Assembly: GCA_964400725.1 (NCBI GenBank)
Contig: CAYNVS010000005.1
Span: forward strand, 8,632-72,631
DNA: 64,000 bases
Direction: 5' to 3'
DNA from: an uncultured Myxococcales bacterium
GTDB lineage: Bacteria; Myxococcota_A; SURF-8; CAYNVS01
The first letter of the stretch is position 1. Each line of letters starts with the position of its first letter. The notes beneath the pieces are model-generated. The model did not search any database. It was not told the DNA's origin and worked only from the letters and a program-made list of their open reading frames with translations. Positions 12,748 to 22,793 of this stretch are shown in pieces. The position numbers and the translations under genes are program-made.

Positions 12748-14007
12748 CTACTTGTTTTCAACGAAAGTAATCGTCAGCAGATAAATCTGCGTTCCTTTTT
12801 TACTGGTCTGTCCCGACAGCCACGTCGTATCCGTCATATCGAGCGGATTGGTGTAATTCGCCAGTAAAAAGGCATGCGCGTCGATGCGGCGGACGGCCAT
12901 GAAAGCGTTGTCGCCGCAGCCCGGCAAATCAAATACTTTTTCTACTTTGCGGGCGTCGCGGTTGATTTTATACAGCGCGCTCCCCTTGGGGCGCAGCGAA
13001 TAATCGACCAAATACTTGCTTTTTTGCTCGTCGAACGTCAACTCGCTTTTTCCTTGGTCGTAGGGGCCGCCTACGTCCCGGCGCGCGGCGAGGTAAATAT
13101 CGTTTCCGTGCCGAAACATCTCCGGCGAGTCGTAACGGTTTGGATCGCTTTTAGGCGAACATTCCCACTCCGAAAGAGCGTTTTTAGGCGCAAAGCAAAC
13201 GTGCGAACCGAAACCGGTCGCGTCGCCGTCCTCGTTGCGGGTAACGGCCCAAAGGTTTCCTTCGGCGTCGAACTCGAACGCGACTTCCGACACGCCCCCC
13301 TTGTAAACGTAATCCTTGCCGTTTACCTTTGTAAAGTTCTCGCCGTCTTCCGACTCTTTAAAATAAACTTCAATCTCCGAAGTTCCCGTCTCGTAATGGT
13401 TTCCTTTATAGGAAGTCATATAAACCCTGCCGTTGCGGACTTTTATGTCCCACGGAACTTCGCCGGCGTCAACCGCAAGCTCCGGCGCGCTCCAATCGCC
13501 GAGAGAGGCTCGCTTCACGCGCCACATCCCTTTAGGCTCGAAGGTAAACATGTCCGTTCCCGCCTCGAAGAAATACAGCCATATCCGGCCTTTGTAAGCC
13601 AGAAAGCGCGGCTCGCGCACGTCGGCGTCAACCGCTATTTCGCTCTCGAACTCCCACGTGGCGCCTTGGTCGAGGGATGAGGCGATTAACATTCGCGTAT
13701 ATTCGGAGGCGAAGTGATTGGGAGCGGTGCGCCACGCCATAAAAAGGCGGCCGTCGAAAAAGATAATATCGACGTTGTTGTTGGAGGCTTCGAGTTTGAT
13801 GGACGAGGGCAGCCCGGCGGAGGGAACGACCCAGCGGGGGGCGGAGGCTTGGGGCGTATACGTCTTATGATCGTCCGTAAAGTAATCGCCGGGGTCGTCG
13901 GATGGCACTTCTCCCGGCGCATCCGCGGAAGACGAGCCAGACGAACAACCGGTTAATAAGCAAAGCTCGGCGGCGGCGGCCAATAAAACGATAGCGATTA
14001 CGCGCAT
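12748..14007 (-). CDS. BNR/Asp-box repeat lipoprotein (sialidase-like beta-propeller)
   Basis: Lipobox LLTGCSSGSSS. Asp-box motifs SLDQGATWEF and SEDGENFTK. Confidence 0.55.
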   Translation of the reverse strand: MRVIAIVLLAAAAELCLLTGCSSGSSSADAPGEVPSDDPGDYFTDDHKTYTPQASAPRWVVPSAGLPSSIKLEASNNNVDIIFFDGRLFMAWRTAPNHFASEYTRMLIASSLDQGATWEFESEIAVDADVREPRFLAYKGRIWLYFFEAGTDMFTFEPKGMWRVKRASLGDWSAPELAVDAGEVPWDIKVRNGRVYMTSYKGNHYETGTSEIEVYFKESEDGENFTKVNGKDYVYKGGVSEVAFEFDAEGNLWAVTRNEDGDATGFGSHVCFAPKNALSEWECSPKSDPNRYDSPEMFRHGNDIYLAARRDVGGPYDQGKSELTFDEQKSKYLVDYSLRPKGSALYKINRDARKVEKVFDLPGCGDNAFMAVRRIDAHAFLLANYTNPLDMTDTTWLSGQTSKKGTQIYLLTITFVENK

Positions 14008-14057
14008 GGTTTGTTCCTTGAATGGTTTGACCGAGTTATATAATTATTGACTTAAAC

Positions 14058-14837
14058 CTATTTAAATTTTCCAAAATAGCCGTCGATTTCAGGTCTTAAT
14101 TCAATGCCGGCCATTTCAAAGCAATCAAGCAATTCGTCGTAAGTATTTTGCCCGCCCAGAAAATCCCAGAATTCGCGCCCGACCATCAATTCGCCGTCAA
14201 AATCGAGCATGCCTTTTAACGTCCATCGTTCGTATGGTTCCGGCTCGTAAGGATTGTAAGGAATAGCAATGCAGGACTGAACTTTTGCGGCTGGATATTC
14301 CGTTAAATAAAGCGCCGCCCACTCAAGCAGCGTGCGTTTAAAATCCTTGAAATTGCTCACGTTCGGTGTTGCCGTTTTTAAATCAAACATGTAAACCGTT
14401 CCGTTTTTGCTTTTTAAAAACAAATCAACTTTTACGGTTTTCAAAGCGTTTTTCTGACCGCTCTTACAAAATTTTCTAATTCTTTCAATTTCTTCCAATT
14501 TGTTAGGAGCGCTGTTTTTGCTTGTTGATAAATGATTTATAATACGTTGAATTTCTTTTTGCGCGTCTTCGTAAATAGCGTTTGGCAATTTATATTGTTT
14601 TTCCGCAGCTTCAAAAGTTGTTTTCGCAATCGCAACCGCTACCGGTTCATATATTGAGGTTCCGAATGTTGTATTGAGCGATTGTATAAAAGAAAATAAA
14701 GCCATTCTATCTTTTCCTAAAAGCCTGTAATGGAAAGGCATAGAATTGGTTTCCGGAGTATAGTTTTTGAATTTTTCTCTGAGAACGCTTGTAATGATAT
14801 TCTTGATTTCGATTTTTTGGTTAGAAGAAAAGGGCAT
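14058..14837 (-). CDS. type II restriction endonuclease candidate (PD-(D/E)xK fold)
   Basis: Low-GC gene immediately downstream of the methyltransferase (taaATG junction). The putative catalytic motif is VDLFLKSKNGTVYMFDLK, i.e. D...DxK. Confidence 0.5.
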   Translation of the reverse strand: MPFSSNQKIEIKNIITSVLREKFKNYTPETNSMPFHYRLLGKDRMALFSFIQSLNTTFGTSIYEPVAVAIAKTTFEAAEKQYKLPNAIYEDAQKEIQRIINHLSTSKNSAPNKLEEIERIRKFCKSGQKNALKTVKVDLFLKSKNGTVYMFDLKTATPNVSNFKDFKRTLLEWAALYLTEYPAAKVQSCIAIPYNPYEPEPYERWTLKGMLDFDGELMVGREFWDFLGGQNTYDELLDCFEMAGIELRPEIDGYFGKFK

Positions 14838-15213
14838 TTATTTTTCCTTTAGATGAAAAATAATTTCGGCATAGGCGGTAGATCTGTCCTTTTCGACGCG
14901 GTTTAATACCGGCCTCTTGAATCGCTCGACAATTTTCATTCCCGATTTTTCCGCAATTAGCGGATAAAGATTAAATTTATCGTTGGCTACCAAAAAAACA
15001 TCATAATTATCTTGAAGATATTTTTTGCAATTATTTAAAACCGAGGATATTCCAGCCGCATACGCTTCCTTGGCGGCTTTTGTCTGTCCGTTTAAAAGAC
15101 GTCCTATTTCTTGTTCGTCTTTTCTTTCAAATCCAAATATTTCATACGCGTAAGCGTGCTGCTCGTGGTAATCAATTACCCCGACATATGGAGGACTGGA
15201 GAAAATGCCCTTA
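14838..15213 (-). CDS. DNA methyltransferase C-terminal catalytic segment (motif IV SPPY) in +1 frame relative to the upstream segment
   Basis: Translation KKKKIKGIFSSPPYVGVIDYHEQHAYAYEIFG... shows SPPY (motif IV), typical of N6-adenine/N4-cytosine MTases. The segment has no start codon of its own. It opens right after an in-frame stop inside the A8 tract and ends at a taa directly abutting the REase ATG. Confidence 0.6.
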
Positions 15214-16440
15214 ATCTTTTTTTTCTTTTATAAGTTCAGCCAATTTGGCGTTTTTTTGTTCGACTTCGGCTATTAAATCAACGGTAGAGCTGTCCGCCGC
15301 CAAACAAATTTGGAATGTATCCGTTCTTAATTTATCAAATTCAATAATTCTTTTTATGGAATCGTTCGAATATCTTATCCACCAGTCTAGAATTGAGAAC
15401 AACGGTTTGCATATTTTGCCGTGTTTCTTGCAGTAATATGTTCGAGTTACAGGTTCCTTTAAAGTGCCTAAATCGGCGTGAGTCGTAGCCCTGCACGACC
15501 TAGCGGTGCGGCTTAAAATAACCGCTAAAACTTTTTTAAGGTTTTTATCCTCAACGTTTTTAATTTCATTAAAAACAAAGTCGATTTCGTTTCTAACCGG
15601 CAGTAAGTACCATGTCGCCAGAAAAGAGTCGTTTTCTTTTTTGTATATTTCCAACTTGTATTCTTCAACCAAAGAATAGTATATAGGAAGAAATTCATTC
15701 TCACATCGCGTCGAATACTCGCCCTCTTCAATTTCTTTCAAATTGATTTTACGTCTATAATCGGGAGACGGAAAATATTTCTCGTTAAATTTATCAAGTT
15801 CGCATTGCAGTCTCTTTTCAAAAGCGGCGTTTATATTGTTTTTATTAAATTCAATTAATTTAACCGTTATCTGATTGATTATTCTGTTTAGTCTGGCAAC
15901 GTCATGTCGTTCTATTTTTACGTTTGAAATCATAGCGTTAAAGGCCGAAATATCCGCTCCTACCGCATGAATTCCCAATTCATTTGCCTGCACAAGCGTG
16001 GTTCCGCTTCCGGCAAAAGGATCTAAAATAATATCGCCTTTTGTAAAATATATAGTCTTTTTATAGTCGTCGACGCGCGAGTCCAGAAAATATTCCACTA
16101 ATTGCGGAATGAATTTACCTTTATATGGATGGATACGATGGACGTGTTTAGTTCGTTCAGATTCAGAATATTCCGAAAATGATAATTTCCAATTTAAATC
16201 TTCGCCCAGCGCTTTTTTCCAATCGCATTCGTTTTTAATTTGGTCGTAATAACTTTTCAGCTCATTAATATCTACGCAGGTCGAGCCGTTAAATGAATAT
16301 TTTTTTACTTTGCCGTATTGCAGCAAATAAGAAATATTTGAAATCGAAACCGGACGATTATTATATTGCGTCGCCCAAACGCTTGCTTCTTTCAGCTTTA
16401 CAAGACTTGCGTCTTTGTCTTCGGAAGTTCTGAAAACCAT
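15211..16440 (-). CDS. DNA methyltransferase N-terminal segment (motif X/I DPFAGSGTT plus TRD), alpha-class organisation; interrupted by frameshift
   Basis: HPYKGKFIPQLVEYFL...ILDPFAGSGTTLVQANELGIHAVGADIS gives the AdoMet-binding motif I block. About 270 aa of variable TRD follows. The ORF ends ...AELIKEKKD at the A8 run, with the SPPY segment in the next frame. Confidence 0.7.
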   Translation of the reverse strand: MVFRTSEDKDASLVKLKEASVWATQYNNRPVSISNISYLLQYGKVKKYSFNGSTCVDINELKSYYDQIKNECDWKKALGEDLNWKLSFSEYSESERTKHVHRIHPYKGKFIPQLVEYFLDSRVDDYKKTIYFTKGDIILDPFAGSGTTLVQANELGIHAVGADISAFNAMISNVKIERHDVARLNRIINQITVKLIEFNKNNINAAFEKRLQCELDKFNEKYFPSPDYRRKINLKEIEEGEYSTRCENEFLPIYYSLVEEYKLEIYKKENDSFLATWYLLPVRNEIDFVFNEIKNVEDKNLKKVLAVILSRTARSCRATTHADLGTLKEPVTRTYYCKKHGKICKPLFSILDWWIRYSNDSIKRIIEFDKLRTDTFQICLAADSSTVDLIAEVEQKNAKLAELIKEKKD

Positions 16441-16544
16441 TAAAATTAACTTCTTTTCATTTTAAAGCTATAAAAACTAAACAACGATACAACGTTTTTC
16501 CTAATAGAGTCAAGCATAAGCTATTGCTATATAATTATATAGCG

Positions 16545-18746
16545 TTATAACCCCGCCCTCGCTACCTTTATAACGCCGCGCACTCGCCGCAGGGCCGCAA
16601 CAAGCTTCTCAAGCTCGGCTACGCCGTTTACGTGCGCGGTAAAAATCATCGTGGCGGCGGCGTCAACGGTTTGCAAGTCGGCGGCGACAATGTTTACGCT
16701 CATTTTCCTAAAAACCTCGCCAATGGCCGAAAGCATTCCGGGCTTGTCCGCCGTGGTTACGCGCAGCCGAACGCGCATCGCGCCCCCTTGGCCCGCCCAC
16801 TTCGCGCTGACAAGCCGGTCGGGTTCGTTGCGCGGAACGCGGTCGCAGTCCCGGCGATGCACGGTTACCCCGCGCCCGCGGGTTATATAGCCGATTATTT
16901 CGTCCCCTACTATCGGAGAGCAGCAGCGCGCGTAATTTACCAACATGCCGCCAACCCCTTCGATTATCACGTCCCCCTTCAGTTTGCCGGCGCTCGCGGG
17001 CATCTGCGCGGGCTCGACGTCCTGCGCGTTCACCAAATCTTCAATGCGCTCCTCAACCGCGACGAAGACTTCGCGTTCCGGCAGCAACATTTTTACCAAA
17101 GAAGACGCGGTCAGCGTTCCGCGGCCCAGACACAAATATAAGTCGTCAATCGTCCGTTTGTTGGTTTTTTCCAACATTTGAGCCACCGCGGTCTGGTCTT
17201 TTAGCGCCTTTGAGAGGCTCGTATCCTTTTCCTTCAGCGCCTTTTCCAGCAGCTCGCGCCCCAGCTCTTTGTCCGCCTCGCGCCGCTCTTCGGTGAGAAA
17301 GTGCTTTATTTTGGCCTTGGCGCGCTCGGTTTTGACTATATTTAGCCAGTCCTTCGACGGTTTCCCCTTCGGGTGAGTGATTATCTCGACGGTGTCGCCG
17401 TTCTTCAACGCGGCGTCTATCGTGCTTATGCGCCCGCCGATTTTCACCCCCACGCACCTGTCGCCGACGCTGGAGTGAATCGCGTAAGCGAAGTCGAGAG
17501 CCACGGCGCCCTTCGGCAGCTCGCGGACGTCTCCTTTGGGAGTAAAGACGAACACCTCGTCGTCGAACATGTCGGTGTGCAGCGCGTCGAGCAGCGCCGG
17601 ATCGGACAAGTCCTTGCCCGCGGCTATGGCTTCGTGCAGAGAGCCGTAGCTCTTTACCCCGTCGGCTTTTACCTTTCCTTCTTTATAAATCCAGTGCGCC
17701 GCTACGCCGTGCTCCGCGATTTCGTGCATTTCGCGGGTGCGGATTTGTATCTCTATCCGCTCGGCGTTTGGGCCGATGACCGCCGTATGCAGCGATTGAT
17801 AGCCGTTAGGCTTGGGCGCGGCTATATAGTCGTCGAACTGCCCCGGTATAGGGCGGTAGGCGGAGTGAACCATGCCTAGAACCTGGTAGCATTCGTGTTT
17901 TTCTTCCACGATGACGCGAAAGGCGGTAATATCGTAAAGTTCGTCAAAGTCCAGCTTGCGGCGTTCCAGTTTTTTTTGAATCGACCAGAAATGTTTCGGT
18001 CTGCCCGAAATTTGTCCTTTTATTCCCGCATCTGCGAGCAGTTTTGAAAGCTCTTCCTTAACGTTGGATATGTATTCCTCGCGGGCGCTTCTTTTAAGGG
18101 CGACGAGGCTTTTAAGCTCGTTGTAACGCTCCGGCTCTAAAAATCGAAACGCTAAATCCTCCAGCTCGCTTTTTATGGAATAAACTCCCAAACGATTTGC
18201 GAGCGGCGCGTATATCTCTATGGTTTCCTTGGCTATTTGCAGCCTCACGTCCGGTTCGAGGTATTGCAGCGTGCGCATGGAGTCGAGCCTGTCGGCGAGT
18301 TTGATAAGCAGAACGCGTATGTCTTTTGCGAGCGTGAGCACGAGGCGTCGGAAGCTCTCCGGCTGGTTTGAGCCGCCGTGGCGGTAGCTGTACTTGCTTA
18401 TCCTCGCCGCGCCCGCCACTATCTCGGCCGTTTTAGAACGAACTTCCGGCAGGGACGCGATTTCTTCCAAGGTAGTTTTTTCCTCCTCAAACGGCGCAAG
18501 CAGCAGCGCGCCTTGAAGAGACGACAAATCGAGCTTCAGCTCCGACAGCGACAACGCCATTCCAAGCGGGTGAACGACGAACGGATCGCCGGATGCGCGC
18601 TTCAAACCCTCAAGTTTATTGTGAGAAAATTCAATCGCCGCCGAGAGCATGAGCATCTCGTCCGGTTTGAGATAAGCGCCGGCGTTTTCAATTAGAGCAA
18701 ACTTAAGCTGCTCCGCCGTCGCTCTTTTTATGTCCGAAATCGACAT
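16545..18746 (-). CDS. relA: RelA/SpoT-family (p)ppGpp synthetase with degenerate HD hydrolase motif
   Basis: Synthetase motifs LYDITAFRVIV and YQSLHT, with TGS and ACT C-terminal domains. The hydrolase HD dyad is replaced (FVVHPLGMA...LLLAPFEEE instead of LLHDvvEDT). 733 aa. Confidence 0.85.
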   Translation of the reverse strand: MSISDIKRATAEQLKFALIENAGAYLKPDEMLMLSAAIEFSHNKLEGLKRASGDPFVVHPLGMALSLSELKLDLSSLQGALLLAPFEEEKTTLEEIASLPEVRSKTAEIVAGAARISKYSYRHGGSNQPESFRRLVLTLAKDIRVLLIKLADRLDSMRTLQYLEPDVRLQIAKETIEIYAPLANRLGVYSIKSELEDLAFRFLEPERYNELKSLVALKRSAREEYISNVKEELSKLLADAGIKGQISGRPKHFWSIQKKLERRKLDFDELYDITAFRVIVEEKHECYQVLGMVHSAYRPIPGQFDDYIAAPKPNGYQSLHTAVIGPNAERIEIQIRTREMHEIAEHGVAAHWIYKEGKVKADGVKSYGSLHEAIAAGKDLSDPALLDALHTDMFDDEVFVFTPKGDVRELPKGAVALDFAYAIHSSVGDRCVGVKIGGRISTIDAALKNGDTVEIITHPKGKPSKDWLNIVKTERAKAKIKHFLTEERREADKELGRELLEKALKEKDTSLSKALKDQTAVAQMLEKTNKRTIDDLYLCLGRGTLTASSLVKMLLPEREVFVAVEERIEDLVNAQDVEPAQMPASAGKLKGDVIIEGVGGMLVNYARCCSPIVGDEIIGYITRGRGVTVHRRDCDRVPRNEPDRLVSAKWAGQGGAMRVRLRVTTADKPGMLSAIGEVFRKMSVNIVAADLQTVDAAATMIFTAHVNGVAELEKLVAALRRVRGVIKVARAGL

Positions 18747-18797: not shown

Positions 18798-20510
18798 TCA
18801 GTCGGCGAGCAGCTTTTTAAGGCTGGTGAGAATATTCAAAGGCGTAAAATCCTTGGCGCGCTCGCTCTTTTCAATAATGTAGGTAATTATCTCTTTGGTT
18901 TTGTCAAGAGAATCGTTGATGACTATGTAATCGAACTTAGCGTACTGCCTAATTTCGGCCTTAGCGATGGAAAGCCTTCTCTCAATCTCTTTGGGGTCGT
19001 CGGTTTTGCGCTCGCGCAGGCGGCGGGCGAGCTCTTCGTACGAAGGCGGCAGGATGAAAATAAGCTCCGCGTTGGGGAAGCGCTTGCGTATCCCGTCGGC
19101 GCCCTGAACGTCTATGTCCAGCACGGCGTTTTTACCGGCGTTGAGTATATCGTTGACCGACCGCCAAGAAGTTCCGTAATAGTGAAGCCCGTACACGAAC
19201 GCGTGCTCCGCAAATTCGTCGTTCTCGACCATTTTTTTAAAGGTCGTCTCGTCGACAAAGTGATACTCCCGTCCGTTTTGCTCGTTGCCGCGCGGCTTGC
19301 GCGTGGTGTGGCTTATCGAAAGCGAGAAATCGGGAAATCGCTCAACGATGAAGTTGCAAATTGTGGACTTCCCCGCGCCCGACGGGGCGGATACGACTAG
19401 AACTCGCGGAGGGGGAAGTTTATCGTCAATGGTAAAGTCATCTGAGTTGGACTCGTGTGAAATTTTATTTGCAATGTTAGAATCATCTTGATCAATCATC
19501 GAAGGCTCTTCATCCTGACTAGGAAGATATTTTAACAAATTATAGATTTCTTTATGTTCTCTGGGCATGCAAGATCGGGAGTCGTTACAGATATAAGGCT
19601 CAATAATCCCAAGCTCAGAAGGAAGTTGGTCTCTAATTTTTCTTAAATCATTTTGAAATTCTTCATCCTTGATTTGCATTGGATCTGGGTTTCGCCATTT
19701 AAAAAGTTTCACATTTAACTCTGTTTCCCAATGATTTGGTCTAATGGGATTAGAGTAAGTGACCCAAATAATAGGATAAGGGAAATCATTCCAAACTCCT
19801 TTAAGTTTTTCATAGCCAACAATTTTACCTTTAATAGCACAGGGAATACTTTTTTCACCAAGTAATTGAGCTAAATCTAGAGAGATTACCATTAATTCCG
19901 TATAAGAATATTTTGAAATCCTAAAGCCTATGTCAATTTCTGGGCCAATATAATCAATAACTTTATTTTCGCCTTCATTGCCGGCACTTAATGATAACTC
20001 AATTTCTCGATTTCTAATTGGAAAACCTGCTGTCCAGCCCGCACCTTTTAGCCGCAAACTTGGTTTGGAAATACCCTCAATAGTTTTTAAAAAACATTCA
20101 GTAATATTTGTTATCTCTTCACGGTTGTCTACAGCGTAGGTGTAAAGTAACTCATCGCCCAATATTTTCCAGATCCTTCCTTTTTCAAGCAATTTTTTTT
20201 CTGTTTTTCTAAGATGTTGTTTAAACTGACTATTAAACTGCTTAAAAGTTGTTTCTATGACAGTTTGCCAATTATAAGTCTCTTTGGTGATGTTTGCTAA
20301 TATATGTCCTATACCACTTTTATTATCTAAATTTTTATATAAACAATCGCTTGGAGATATATTGTTCGCCTCTAGGTAGGATAGGACAATGTCTTTCCTT
20401 TCCTTATATATTTTTAGAAGGCGTTCATGGTTAAATACGGATTTTAAAGCGGTCGAATTTTCTATATCAACACTTAGAAACAGCCTAAATGTCGGTTTTA
20501 AAGCTTGCAT
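18798..20510 (-). CDS. gmk: chimeric protein: novel low-GC N-terminal region (aa 1-370, weak nucleotidyl-cyclase-like D...GD...R motifs) fused to guanylate kinase (aa 375-570)
   Basis: C-terminus VLVVSAPSGAGKSTICNF...HTTRKPRGNEQNGREYHFV...YGTSW...LDIDVQG is canonical Gmk encoded in GC-rich DNA. The N-terminal ~1.1 kb is conspicuously AT-rich and encodes FRLFLSVDIENSTAL...WKILGDELLYTYAV...IDYIGPEIDIGFRISKYS. It is one continuous ORF. Confidence 0.7.
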   Translation of the reverse strand: MQALKPTFRLFLSVDIENSTALKSVFNHERLLKIYKERKDIVLSYLEANNISPSDCLYKNLDNKSGIGHILANITKETYNWQTVIETTFKQFNSQFKQHLRKTEKKLLEKGRIWKILGDELLYTYAVDNREEITNITECFLKTIEGISKPSLRLKGAGWTAGFPIRNREIELSLSAGNEGENKVIDYIGPEIDIGFRISKYSYTELMVISLDLAQLLGEKSIPCAIKGKIVGYEKLKGVWNDFPYPIIWVTYSNPIRPNHWETELNVKLFKWRNPDPMQIKDEEFQNDLRKIRDQLPSELGIIEPYICNDSRSCMPREHKEIYNLLKYLPSQDEEPSMIDQDDSNIANKISHESNSDDFTIDDKLPPPRVLVVSAPSGAGKSTICNFIVERFPDFSLSISHTTRKPRGNEQNGREYHFVDETTFKKMVENDEFAEHAFVYGLHYYGTSWRSVNDILNAGKNAVLDIDVQGADGIRKRFPNAELIFILPPSYEELARRLRERKTDDPKEIERRLSIAKAEIRQYAKFDYIVINDSLDKTKEIITYIIEKSERAKDFTPLNILTSLKKLLAD

Positions 20511-20518
20511 TATCGGGG

Positions 20519-21040
20519 TTAATCGTTAAAAAGTGTTTTTGATCTTATTTCTATTGCATGGACAGAAACCCTAAAAAATGAGGACAGCAAACTTTTATCC
20601 GCAGAAAGTTCTTTGTATTTTTTTTCAAAAACAATTTTAGGCATCAAAAAGGCAGCGGCGAATCTGTTAGCTTGCCATTCCTCTTTATTTGATCCTTGCC
20701 GATAGAATGTTATTGGTTCTTCTTCGCCTGTTTGAGCGTCATAATGTAAAAAATAATGACCTAACTCATGCGCAATGGTAAAATTATCTCTTAGAGAAGT
20801 ATCAAAAGGGACTAATAAAATCGAGAAATCGTTTTTCTTTCGAATAATTAATGACGCCGGAGAAAAAATATTATCCGACAAAGACTCAATCTTTCCACCG
20901 AGAAGATTTACAACAGTATTTAGAAATGGTCTAACCTCATCTTCATACTTATTCGCATCTTTTTCAAAATGCATTCTAGCTTTGCCAGCTAAAGCCTCTA
21001 TTTTTTCATTACTGAAAAAAAGTAGTTTTTTTCTACCCAT
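20519..21040 (-). CDS. ImmA/IrrE-family (DUF955) zinc metallopeptidase
   Basis: HEXXH-type signature FTIAHELGHYFLHYDAQ. Start set at the second ATG (MGRKKLLFF), which is preceded by GAGAGGAGAG. Low-GC gene 8 nt upstream of the chimeric gmk gene. Confidence 0.65.
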   Translation of the reverse strand: MGRKKLLFFSNEKIEALAGKARMHFEKDANKYEDEVRPFLNTVVNLLGGKIESLSDNIFSPASLIIRKKNDFSILLVPFDTSLRDNFTIAHELGHYFLHYDAQTGEEEPITFYRQGSNKEEWQANRFAAAFLMPKIVFEKKYKELSADKSLLSSFFRVSVHAIEIRSKTLFND

Positions 21041-21170
21041 ATTAGCTCTCCTCTCAACAAACACACAATAATATTAAAAAGCTTAACCAGCTTCTTGTCA
21101 AGCGATATTATAAAATTATAACAAATTAAATAATATTAAGCCAATATTAAGGCTTGTTTAACAAGATAAA

Positions 21171-22793
21171 TTACTTGATATTCCACGTTTTCCAATCTCC
21201 GGGGGGCGGCATGACCGGATTTTCCTTGAAAGCCCTTACCACCGCCTCGAAGACGGTAACGCCCATGTCTATCGACGGGCTCTTTTTCAGCATGTAATAT
21301 CCGTCGCCGCCGTTAGCCAAAAAAGTTATGGTTGCGACGGAGTACGTTTTATCGACCTCCAGCGGACGGCCTCCTATCATCACGCGGTAAATTTTGCCGT
21401 CTTTTGCGTAAACGCGCGCCCCCGCAAGCTGCAAAAAGCCTCCTTTGAGCTTCGCTTCCTTGTCGAGCCTCGAAAGGGACTCCGAAAGTATCATCAGCAG
21501 TTTGTCGCCGGTCATTTCAAGCCGCAGTATTTGGTTGGGAAAAGGCAGCGCGGAAACGATGTCGAGGTAACGCACGTCTCCTTTTTCAATCGGAGCGCGA
21601 ATCGCTCCGGAATTTATAAACCCGACGTCCGCCTTCCCTTCTTTTCTTATTATCTCGGCTATCATGGTTCCCAGCTCGAAACTTCCCGCCTCGCCGCCGT
21701 GATCGTAATTTAAAGCAAGGTCTTTCGTCAGCTCGCCCGCCTTTTGCGGCATCGAATTTTTCGCCAGCGAAACGAATTTCTCGACTATTATTTCAACCTG
21801 CGGGTCTTTTTCAATTTTCTCGGTTACAAATATCTCGCGCGCTTCTTCCACGTAAGAAGAGCCGCCTTCAAGAATAATTTTAATCTTTCCAACGATTCCT
21901 CCGTGCGCCTGAGCCTGCGCGACGAATATTCCGCGCCCCTTGGGCGGCGTGATTAGTTTGTGCGTGTGTCCGCCGACAACGCCCAATATGGGAATGGGCG
22001 TATTCGTTTTGGAGAGCTTCTCCGCAAGCGCAAAGTCTTCCTCGTCTCCCATGTGCGAAACGATTAAGACGTAATCGTGAGTCTCCGCAAGCGTAGGCAG
22101 CAAAGAGTCAAGCGTTTCCATCGGATCGGCGAAAGCTAGTCCTTCTACGTTTTTCTCGTCCGTCAACAGCGGCGTCTGAGCGTTGGCAATGCCGACGAGA
22201 GCGATTTTCTTTCCGCCTTTCGTAAAAAAGCTGGCGTAGGGCGCGAAAAGCGGCTTTCGCGTTCCTTCGTATAAAATGTTCGCCGCGATAATCTTAAACT
22301 CCGCGCCGCGAGCGAGCTGTAAAAGGCGCTCCTTGCCGTAATCGAACTCGTGGTTGCCCACGGTCATTACTTCCAGCCCTACCGCGTCCATCGCCTTAAA
22401 TTCCGCCATCCCTTTGGTAAAAAGAGACTGCGGAGTCCCTTGCATAACGTCTCCGGCGGCTATAAAAAGCGCGTCGCATCCCAAAGAATCGGCTTCCGCC
22501 TTCTCTGAGTTGATTACCGTTTTAATGCGGGACGCTCCTCCGCGGTAACTTCCGGCTCCCGCGCCGGTAGGGGTAATATGGCAGTGAAAGTCGTTGATGT
22601 GAAGAATTACAAGACATTGTTTGGAGTTGTCGGAAACTAAAGAAGGAGCCTGCCCGCACGAAAAAAATACCGCCGCCGAAACGGCTATTAAAACAAGCGC
22701 CAACTCAAACGCAAAAAAGTTCGGTTTGCCTCTTTTTATTACGCTTCCGCCCCCAGCCGCCGGCTCGTTCGCCGATAAAAACATTTTATTCAT
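21171..22793 (-). CDS. bifunctional metallophosphatase / 5'-nucleotidase (UshA family), secreted
   Basis: LHINDFHCHI and GNHEFDYG metallophosphoesterase motifs, N-terminal TM/signal segment, and a C-terminal 5'-nucleotidase domain. Confidence 0.85.
   Translation of the reverse strand: MNKMFLSANEPAAGGGSVIKRGKPNFFAFELALVLIAVSAAVFFSCGQAPSLVSDNSKQCLVILHINDFHCHITPTGAGAGSYRGGASRIKTVINSEKAEADSLGCDALFIAAGDVMQGTPQSLFTKGMAEFKAMDAVGLEVMTVGNHEFDYGKERLLQLARGAEFKIIAANILYEGTRKPLFAPYASFFTKGGKKIALVGIANAQTPLLTDEKNVEGLAFADPMETLDSLLPTLAETHDYVLIVSHMGDEEDFALAEKLSKTNTPIPILGVVGGHTHKLITPPKGRGIFVAQAQAHGGIVGKIKIILEGGSSYVEEAREIFVTEKIEKDPQVEIIVEKFVSLAKNSMPQKAGELTKDLALNYDHGGEAGSFELGTMIAEIIRKEGKADVGFINSGAIRAPIEKGDVRYLDIVSALPFPNQILRLEMTGDKLLMILSESLSRLDKEAKLKGGFLQLAGARVYAKDGKIYRVMIGGRPLEVDKTYSVATITFLANGGDGYYMLKKSPSIDMGVTVFEAVVRAFKENPVMPPPGDWKTWNIK

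Follow-up and report, generated by a model that had tools for sequence, protein, structure and literature searches.

The Type II restriction-modification (R-M) system TdeIII has been shown experimentally to act as a barrier to unmethylated DNA (PMC12878829, PMC8265222), and in Helicobacter pylori PeCan4 a horizontally acquired TdeIII-like pair of methyltransferase (M) and restriction endonuclease (R) genes has replaced other genes at a variable locus (PMC3467074). Repeat-flanked R-M units associated with rearrangements are likewise well known (PMC2853133). Furthermore, frame-restoring slippage has been documented on runs of 8-9 A (PMC1088944). Here we describe a TdeIII-family R-M cassette in a stretch of 64,000 nucleotides (nt) from an uncultured Myxococcales bacterium (assembly GCA_964400725.1, contig CAYNVS010000005.1, positions 8,632 to 72,631), to which we refer as the window. 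An earlier note, made from the letters of this stretch alone, had proposed a horizontally acquired low-GC R-M cassette between relA/spoT and a lipoprotein gene, possibly bounded by a target-site duplication. We find that the cassette combines a foreign composition and an apparently intact R gene with an M gene that is interrupted by one extra A in a run of eight (A8), and that a contig from a public sample carries a run of seven (A7), which restores the frame. Taken together, the identities of the genes, their foreign composition, the frameshift, the A7/A8 difference and the conservation of invariant residues are established with good confidence.

The block appears, with good support from reading frames and profile matches, to be a self-contained Type II R-M module on the minus strand, with M followed by R. 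The proposal of a Type II pair was thus correct: R belongs to PF09520, and M matches both PF01555 and the PADLOC model MTase_II. The R gene was also correctly located; it is a minus-strand open reading frame (ORF) at 14058..14837 that encodes 259 amino acids (aa) and appears intact. The protein is a TdeIII-family endonuclease, as it matches PF09520 over the full length of the model (positions 2-242/242) with E=1.3e-88 and 297 bits, above the curated cut-off of 27.2; the newer Pfam label of this family is 'HinfI'. It is 65-69% identical to very many proteins, many of which are named 'TdeIII family type II restriction endonuclease', from Caldisericum, Desulfurella, Thermodesulfobium, Chloroflexi, Zixibacteria, Bacteroidia, Jettenia, Actinobacteria and Methanosarcinales. 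In an alignment of 25 sequences, R keeps all invariant columns, among them D138 and D152-x-K154, which resemble a PD-(D/E)XK site. A sequence search of the PDB with R gave no match.

The M gene is broken. Read from its start at 16440, the frame runs into a premature TAA (15211-15213) after 409 aa, before the catalytic motif SPPY. This N-terminal part (15211..16440, minus strand, 409 codons) carries motif I (DPFAGSGTT) and a long middle region. The C-terminal part lies in the +1 frame (14838..15227, minus strand, about 125 codons); it starts with KIKGIFSSPPYVG, includes motif IV (SPPY) and ends with a TAA at 14838-14840 that directly adjoins the R start codon ATG (14835-14837). The cause of the frameshift is a homopolymer run at 15217..15224, which reads A8 on the coding strand (minus) and T8 on the plus strand. 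The earlier note was therefore right that the M stop and the R start abut, and mistaken in treating 14838-16440 as one ORF. M and R are separate adjoining genes on one strand, as in an orthodox Type II system; the intact M ORF of such a system is missing here, and motifs I and IV lie in different frames.

Removing one A from the run, to A7, restores the frame and gives an M of 533 aa. This repaired M aligns over 98-100% with more than 100 homologues that are encoded by single ORFs (530-535 aa, 64-68% identity), and none of the invariant residues is lost on either side of the shift. SPPY, at residues 415-418 of the repaired M, is invariant in 14 homologues. The repaired protein scores 53 bits against PF01555 (cut-off 26.7) and, together with SPPY, this identifies it as an amino-methyltransferase. 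Only the C-terminal half of the PF01555 model is matched, on the N-terminal part of M, and the order of motifs is accordingly permuted relative to the model ('alpha': motif I upstream of motif IV). The PADLOC MTase_II model PDLC03249 is matched with E=4e-157 only over positions 15-416/541, which shows that the 409-aa ORF is truncated. A sequence search of the PDB with M returned weak motif-I matches only. We also note that residues ~12-50 of M (16440-16170, minus strand) include a conserved segment, KEASxWASQYLNRKVTISNISYLLQYGRIKKYG, which resembles an excisionase/MerR-type helix-turn-helix; this segment gave no match in Pfam.

Two other readings of the split gene were considered and rejected. 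A methylase made of split subunits, as in M.AquI, would need a start codon for the second part, and no ATG, GTG or TTG is present upstream of SPPY in the C-terminal frame; the single-ORF homologues and the existing A7 allele also make it unlikely. Likewise, there is no sign of a programmed frameshift, as neither a Shine-Dalgarno-like stimulator nor a conserved run is present.

Homologous cassettes confirm the structure of the unit. In unrelated genomes (L015-L020), an M of 534-535 aa is followed one nucleotide later by an R of 257 aa. The true unit is thus M then R, and the M in the window is a broken version of it. The same order is found on a putative viral contig (L023), and an R homologue is present on a second viral contig (L022). 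In IMG/VR, homologues at 56% identity lie on two contigs. The closest homologues of the cassette (64-69% identity) are spread over many bacterial and archaeal phyla, with hosts that include Chloroflexi, Caldisericum, Desulfurella, Methanosarcinales and Aenigmatarchaeota, all at ~64-69% identity. The plasmids and phages that carry the family, namely small Clostridium plasmids, one Vibrio plasmid and one Streptococcus phage, hold only distant members (27-33% identity). In a separate comparison of L015 (1438-3326) with L016-L019, from another species with a homologous M-R pair, the DNA just upstream of the pair varies between samples and the downstream side is constant. One contig has a second R-M pair (PF01555 and RE_MjaI) in this upstream region, where others have a NERD/UvrD-like helicase gene; the region looks like a hot spot of defence genes.

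When comparing the length of the A run across assemblies, we find both states. A8 is carried by the window, by L001 (Logan SRR6476076) and by L005 (JGI 3300022666), all of which are 100% identical. The JGI sample of L005 also yielded contig L002, in which the run is A7 and M is in frame; L002 is otherwise identical to the window over 1,295 nt. L002 and L005 overlap by 172 nt, and the A run is their sole difference. That two contigs break around the run in one assembly suggests that both lengths are well represented in the sample. The homologues carry GAACAAAAGATT or AAGCAAAAGATC at this position and no long run, so that the A run is an accidental slippage-prone site rather than a conserved switch. 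The A7 run arose in this lineage by a single C-to-A change (CAA-to-AAA), as judged from the homologous codons. Regarding phase variation, one sample has given contigs of both lengths; a maintained long tract is not present, as the run measures only 7-8 nt and is lacking in homologues.

The cassette is compositionally foreign, and its horizontal acquisition appears well supported. A two-state likelihood change-point scan delimits a low-GC segment at 13982-16550, with a GC content of 0.365 compared to 0.561 in the flanks, and sliding-window profiles of GC content agree in placing the AT-rich block at ~14.0-16.5 kb. The GC content at third codon positions (GC3) is 0.36-0.39 in the cassette genes and 0.67-0.69 in the genes for relA, the lipoprotein and an acyl-CoA dehydrogenase. 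The GC statistics that the earlier note had recommended thus reveal a strong difference between cassette genes and flanks and uphold its AT-rich block; its backbone value of roughly 58% was too high, as GC content is ~0.53 over the whole window and 0.56 in the local flanks. Horizontal acquisition is supported by the foreign composition, by the homologues across phyla and by the closest relatives of relA, which have no R-M genes downstream. As had also been stated, no integrase or transposase is found inside or beside the block among the Pfam matches of the neighbouring genes; the adjoining genes are housekeeping genes.

The target of the cassette enzymes is likely a short palindrome. The motif SPPY is typical of N4-cytosine methylases. 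GGNCC with N4-methylcytosine, as listed for TdeIII, fits this motif and may be the target here as well. For palindrome counts we used the backbone, that is, the whole window minus two AT-rich islands (the cassette and a second island described below). GGNCC is depleted 2.3-3.4-fold in the backbone (61 observed compared to 140-206 expected), which is compatible with a GGNCC target and not diagnostic of it. Further palindromes were counted in the same way (observed vs expected): GTSAC (1 vs 25-48), TTCGAA (4 vs 25-46), AAGCTT (4 vs 25-34), GGWCC (11 vs 65-77), GATC (53 vs 139-223), CCWGG (13 vs 55-62) and CTAG (37 vs 44-119). The strong avoidance of several short palindromes in the backbone suggests a long exposure to many restriction systems.

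Concerning expression, no terminator-like site was found in the interval from relA to M or in that from R to the lipoprotein gene. It is thus plausible that transcripts of relA run on into the cassette, and those of the cassette into the lipoprotein gene. Several JGI contigs (L010, L011, L002, L005 and L021) are short and gene-shaped: L010 and L011 have ends one base past the lipoprotein stop codon, and the other short contigs reach from relA into M, or from M across R into the lipoprotein gene. Such contigs would fit a metatranscriptome assembly and co-transcription across the cassette. If the JGI data are RNA, L002 is a possible product of transcriptional slippage.

In the sequence of the window, M is genetically OFF, because the extra A stops translation before SPPY. 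A8 is the majority state in the assemblies seen, and no secondary damage is found in R or in the out-of-frame tail of M. As the invariant residues are kept in both, the break seems to be recent, reversible, or bypassed by slippage; it may be very recent, or replication slippage may revert it. Cells with A8 probably tolerate the intact R by some combination of three escapes. Transcriptional or ribosomal slippage on the A run may give a low level of full-length M. In addition, the expression of R may drop once translation of M ends 373 nt upstream of R, although R has its own ribosome-binding site (AAGGA, 7 nt before its ATG). Finally, another methylase encoded elsewhere in the genome may protect the site.

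Several points weigh against this reading. An intact R with a dead M should be lethal. A7 is seen on one contig only (1,295 nt); the A7/A8 difference may therefore stem from a sequencing or assembly artefact or from a variant at the RNA level. The three A8 assemblies are 100% identical and thus may not be independent. Furthermore, many other palindromes are depleted as much as GGNCC or more. The promoter call in the cassette leader upstream of the M start (TTGACT, 18 nt, TATCGT; 16484..16513, minus strand) is a bare consensus match, and such sites are not above shuffle expectation in the region.

How, then, is an intact R next to a frameshifted M to be explained? If A8 were a homopolymer miscall that was carried through related assemblies, M would be an intact A7 gene and the R-M system would be fully functional. 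The window, L001 and L005 may indeed stem from related libraries, an A7 contig exists, and an undamaged R and out-of-frame tail are exactly what such an artefact would give. However, A8 is the consensus in three separately produced assemblies (NCBI, Logan and JGI), the JGI assembler kept both lengths as separate contigs in one sample, which suggests substantial coverage, and consensus errors of short reads at 8-nt runs are uncommon. We thus consider an artefact improbable. Equally improbable, in our estimate, is a contingency locus, in which replication slippage toggles M between ON (A7) and OFF (A8) at high frequency with an adaptive role in defence or regulation. Phase-variable methyltransferases occur in Helicobacter, Neisseria and Campylobacter, and the two lengths on an otherwise identical background in one sample, as well as the lack of secondary decay downstream of the shift, are in line with such a switch. 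Yet the run is short (7-8) and absent in all homologues examined, both states were found in one sample only, and the cognate R is separate and intact, so that the OFF state should be toxic. Moreover, most known phase-variable methylases are encoded by Type III mod genes, by Type I genes or by orphan genes, and not by the M gene of an orthodox Type II pair with an intact R.

The cassette might also be a decaying remnant, in which M has been inactivated for good and R is non-functional through unseen changes or a lack of expression. Degraded R-M genes are common and A8 is the majority allele in the assemblies seen; however, no further lesion is present, R and both halves of M retain every invariant residue, and there is still an allele in frame. 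We therefore regard decay as unlikely. At the other end stands the idea that A8 is the normal working state and that slippage on the A run, by RNA polymerase, by the ribosome or during replication and reversible within the population, supplies just enough full-length M to shield the chromosome from the intact R. To us this is a long shot; if true, an uncultured bacterium would have a Type II R-M system that is tuned by slippage. The A7 contig could directly show correction at the RNA level, provided that the JGI data sets are metatranscriptomes. With a frameshifted protecting M, a pristine R and both run lengths in one sample, the question of how these cells survive can be tested with existing reads.

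We now turn to the layout of the locus and to how the cassette may have entered it. All genes of the locus lie on the minus strand, in the order relA/spoT (16545-18746, full domain set by profile matches), M, R and the lipoprotein gene (12748-14007, an ORF of 419 aa). The neighbours of the block encode HypD, an AAT-family protein, an acyl-CoA dehydrogenase, relA and gmk. The 419-aa neighbour had been called a BNR lipoprotein; its lipoprotein signal (LLTGC) stands and it has an Asp-box-like motif (SLDQGATW), but a Pfam BNR match at E<=0.01 was not found. The AT-rich cassette proper, as delimited by the change-point scan, GC3 and the ORFs, lies between two 11-bp direct repeats (14048..16527, minus strand). 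Its 2,480 bp consist of a leader of 87 nt, the genes for M and R, and the 10 nt that follow the R stop.

The repeat reported at 14037-14047 and 16528-16538 is real: the copies are exact and unique in 64 kb. The left copy, TATATAATTAT (14037..14047, plus strand), lies 30 nt upstream of the lipoprotein start codon. The right copy is part of a perfect 18-bp palindrome, GCTATATAATTATATAGC (16526..16543), one base past the relA stop. On the plus strand, TATATAATTAT has just these two boundary copies in the window, compared to 0.03 expected. An exact shared run of at least 11 nt between the two intergenic zones (50 and 104 nt) occurs in 0.2% of shuffles, and random pairs of zones from the AT-rich DNA of the island share such a run in 0.9% of draws. 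The resulting local P of ~0.002-0.009 is suggestive but post hoc.

The 11-bp repeats might mark a precise insertion of 2,480 bp between relA and the lipoprotein gene, either as its target-site duplication or as an att-like core; we consider this possible but doubtful. Their exactness, their uniqueness in 64 kb, their tight position at both compositional boundaries and the low chance under local nulls favour such an insertion, and repeat-flanked R-M units with or without mobility genes have been documented (PMC2853133). Against it, exact repeats of 12-14 nt are common inside the AT-rich block, and the 9-mer core of the repeat, TATATAATT, recurs twice elsewhere in the window. Neither terminal inverted repeats joining the inner ends of the cassette nor a linked transposase or integrase were found, and the second AT-rich island entered by substitution without a flanking repeat. 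Moreover, the search for an empty site, as proposed in the earlier note, was negative: all seven assemblies of this organism that reach the locus are occupied (the window, SRR6476076, 3300022666, 3300023203, 3300023207, 3300021843 and 3300020813; in the six samples other than the window, the contigs reach one or both junctions). A metagenome scan for the relA end followed by 5-35 nt and the lipoprotein leader gave 0 matches and is uninformative, as a positive-control pattern that spans the A run, which L002 and L005 contain, also gave 0.

Relatives of the flanking genes also count against a precise insertion. In the two closest relatives of relA (52-53% identity), yicC-gmk-relA is conserved and other genes, with no R-M, lie downstream of relA; a scan of genome contigs with the relA protein found relatives at 36-39% identity only. 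In the nearest relative (~85% nt identity), the lipoprotein orthologue is 87% identical at the protein level and lies 9 nt downstream of a GH5-like gene, not of relA: contig L009 of this sister species carries the GH5-like gene (WLGEFG motif) at 3-269 and the orthologue at 279-1526. A GH5 homologue was not found within the 64-kb window. The flanks of the cassette are thus not contiguous in the relative, the gene order at this point departs from that of all relatives found, and the cassette lies at a synteny breakpoint whose history, as read from these contigs, would not allow polarisation. Simple insertion between relA and the lipoprotein gene, as first proposed, is hence not verified. Insertion with duplication, substitution of intervening genes and chance would all be possible. 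Of the proposed duplication, the exact boundary repeats have stood and the empty site has not been found in the seven assemblies; we conclude that the idea is unproven and somewhat weakened.

Other roles for the palindrome were tested and rejected. As an operator for the helix-turn-helix-like region of M it should be conserved; however, no palindrome equivalent to GCTATATAATTATATAGC was found upstream of the homologous M genes in L015-L020. A role as terminator or as structured RNA is not supported either, since the leader folds no better than shuffles (z = -0.48) and has no Rfam match.

A second foreign AT-rich island lies at 19406-21182, with genes on the minus strand and a GC3 of 0.25-0.27. 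It contains a gene for a CapP/IrrE-like M78 peptidase (20519-21064, minus strand; PF06114 E=1.8e-17, PADLOC capP E=1.5e-20). Next to it, an ORF part of 365 aa without family match runs in frame into guanylate kinase, giving a fusion of 570 aa (18798-20510, minus strand). No canonical start codon remains ahead of the P-loop of gmk, and this essential gene thus seems to be expressed in fusion with foreign DNA. In the sister species (L024, 1436-1532, and L025; ~85% nt identity) the island is absent, which gives a clean empty site relative to 21183/19405 in the window. There, the 5'-nucleotidase gene is followed after 72 nt by gmk (206 aa, MEEKRVLVV...) and then by relA. The island replaced ~97 nt, among them the 3 final codons of the 5'-nucleotidase gene and ~4 codons at the start of gmk. 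As no flanking direct repeat was found when comparing the island to this empty site, it would have entered by illegitimate recombination of the substitution type. The organism is thus a usable example of how foreign AT-rich DNA enters a genome of ~55% GC without mobility genes, and the island fused to guanylate kinase may deserve more attention than the R-M cassette.

Compared to described systems, the cassette is closest to TdeIII of Treponema denticola ATCC 35405 (M = TDE0909, R = TDE0911), whose R belongs to the same family, PF09520, and is likewise paired with a large amino-methyltransferase. This likeness is one of family and not of pairwise identity; host and context differ, and the M in the window is frameshifted. 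The TdeIII-like cassette of PeCan4 is adjoined by the IS element ISHp608, whereas the cassette in the window has no mobility gene. In this respect, and in having two genes, direct repeats next to the stop and start codons of its neighbours and a rearranged site, it resembles the units described by Furuta, Abe and Kobayashi in 2010 (PMC2853133). For those units, however, an empty site is known from a related genome, and most have longer repeats, or inverted repeats with 8-bp duplications; the cassette in the window has an 11-bp repeat, no inverted terminal repeats and no empty site found. The A8 frameshift in an otherwise undamaged gene, with a varying run length, recalls the 'pseudo-pseudogenes' of Baranov et al. 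2005 (PMC1088944). In contrast to these and to phase-variable methylases, the run in the window is not conserved in homologues, and RNA-level correction or frequent switching is only hypothetical. As TdeIII-family cassettes are abundant and known to move between phyla, a further R-M island adds little; what is unusual about the cassette in the window is only the A7/A8 break of M beside an intact R.

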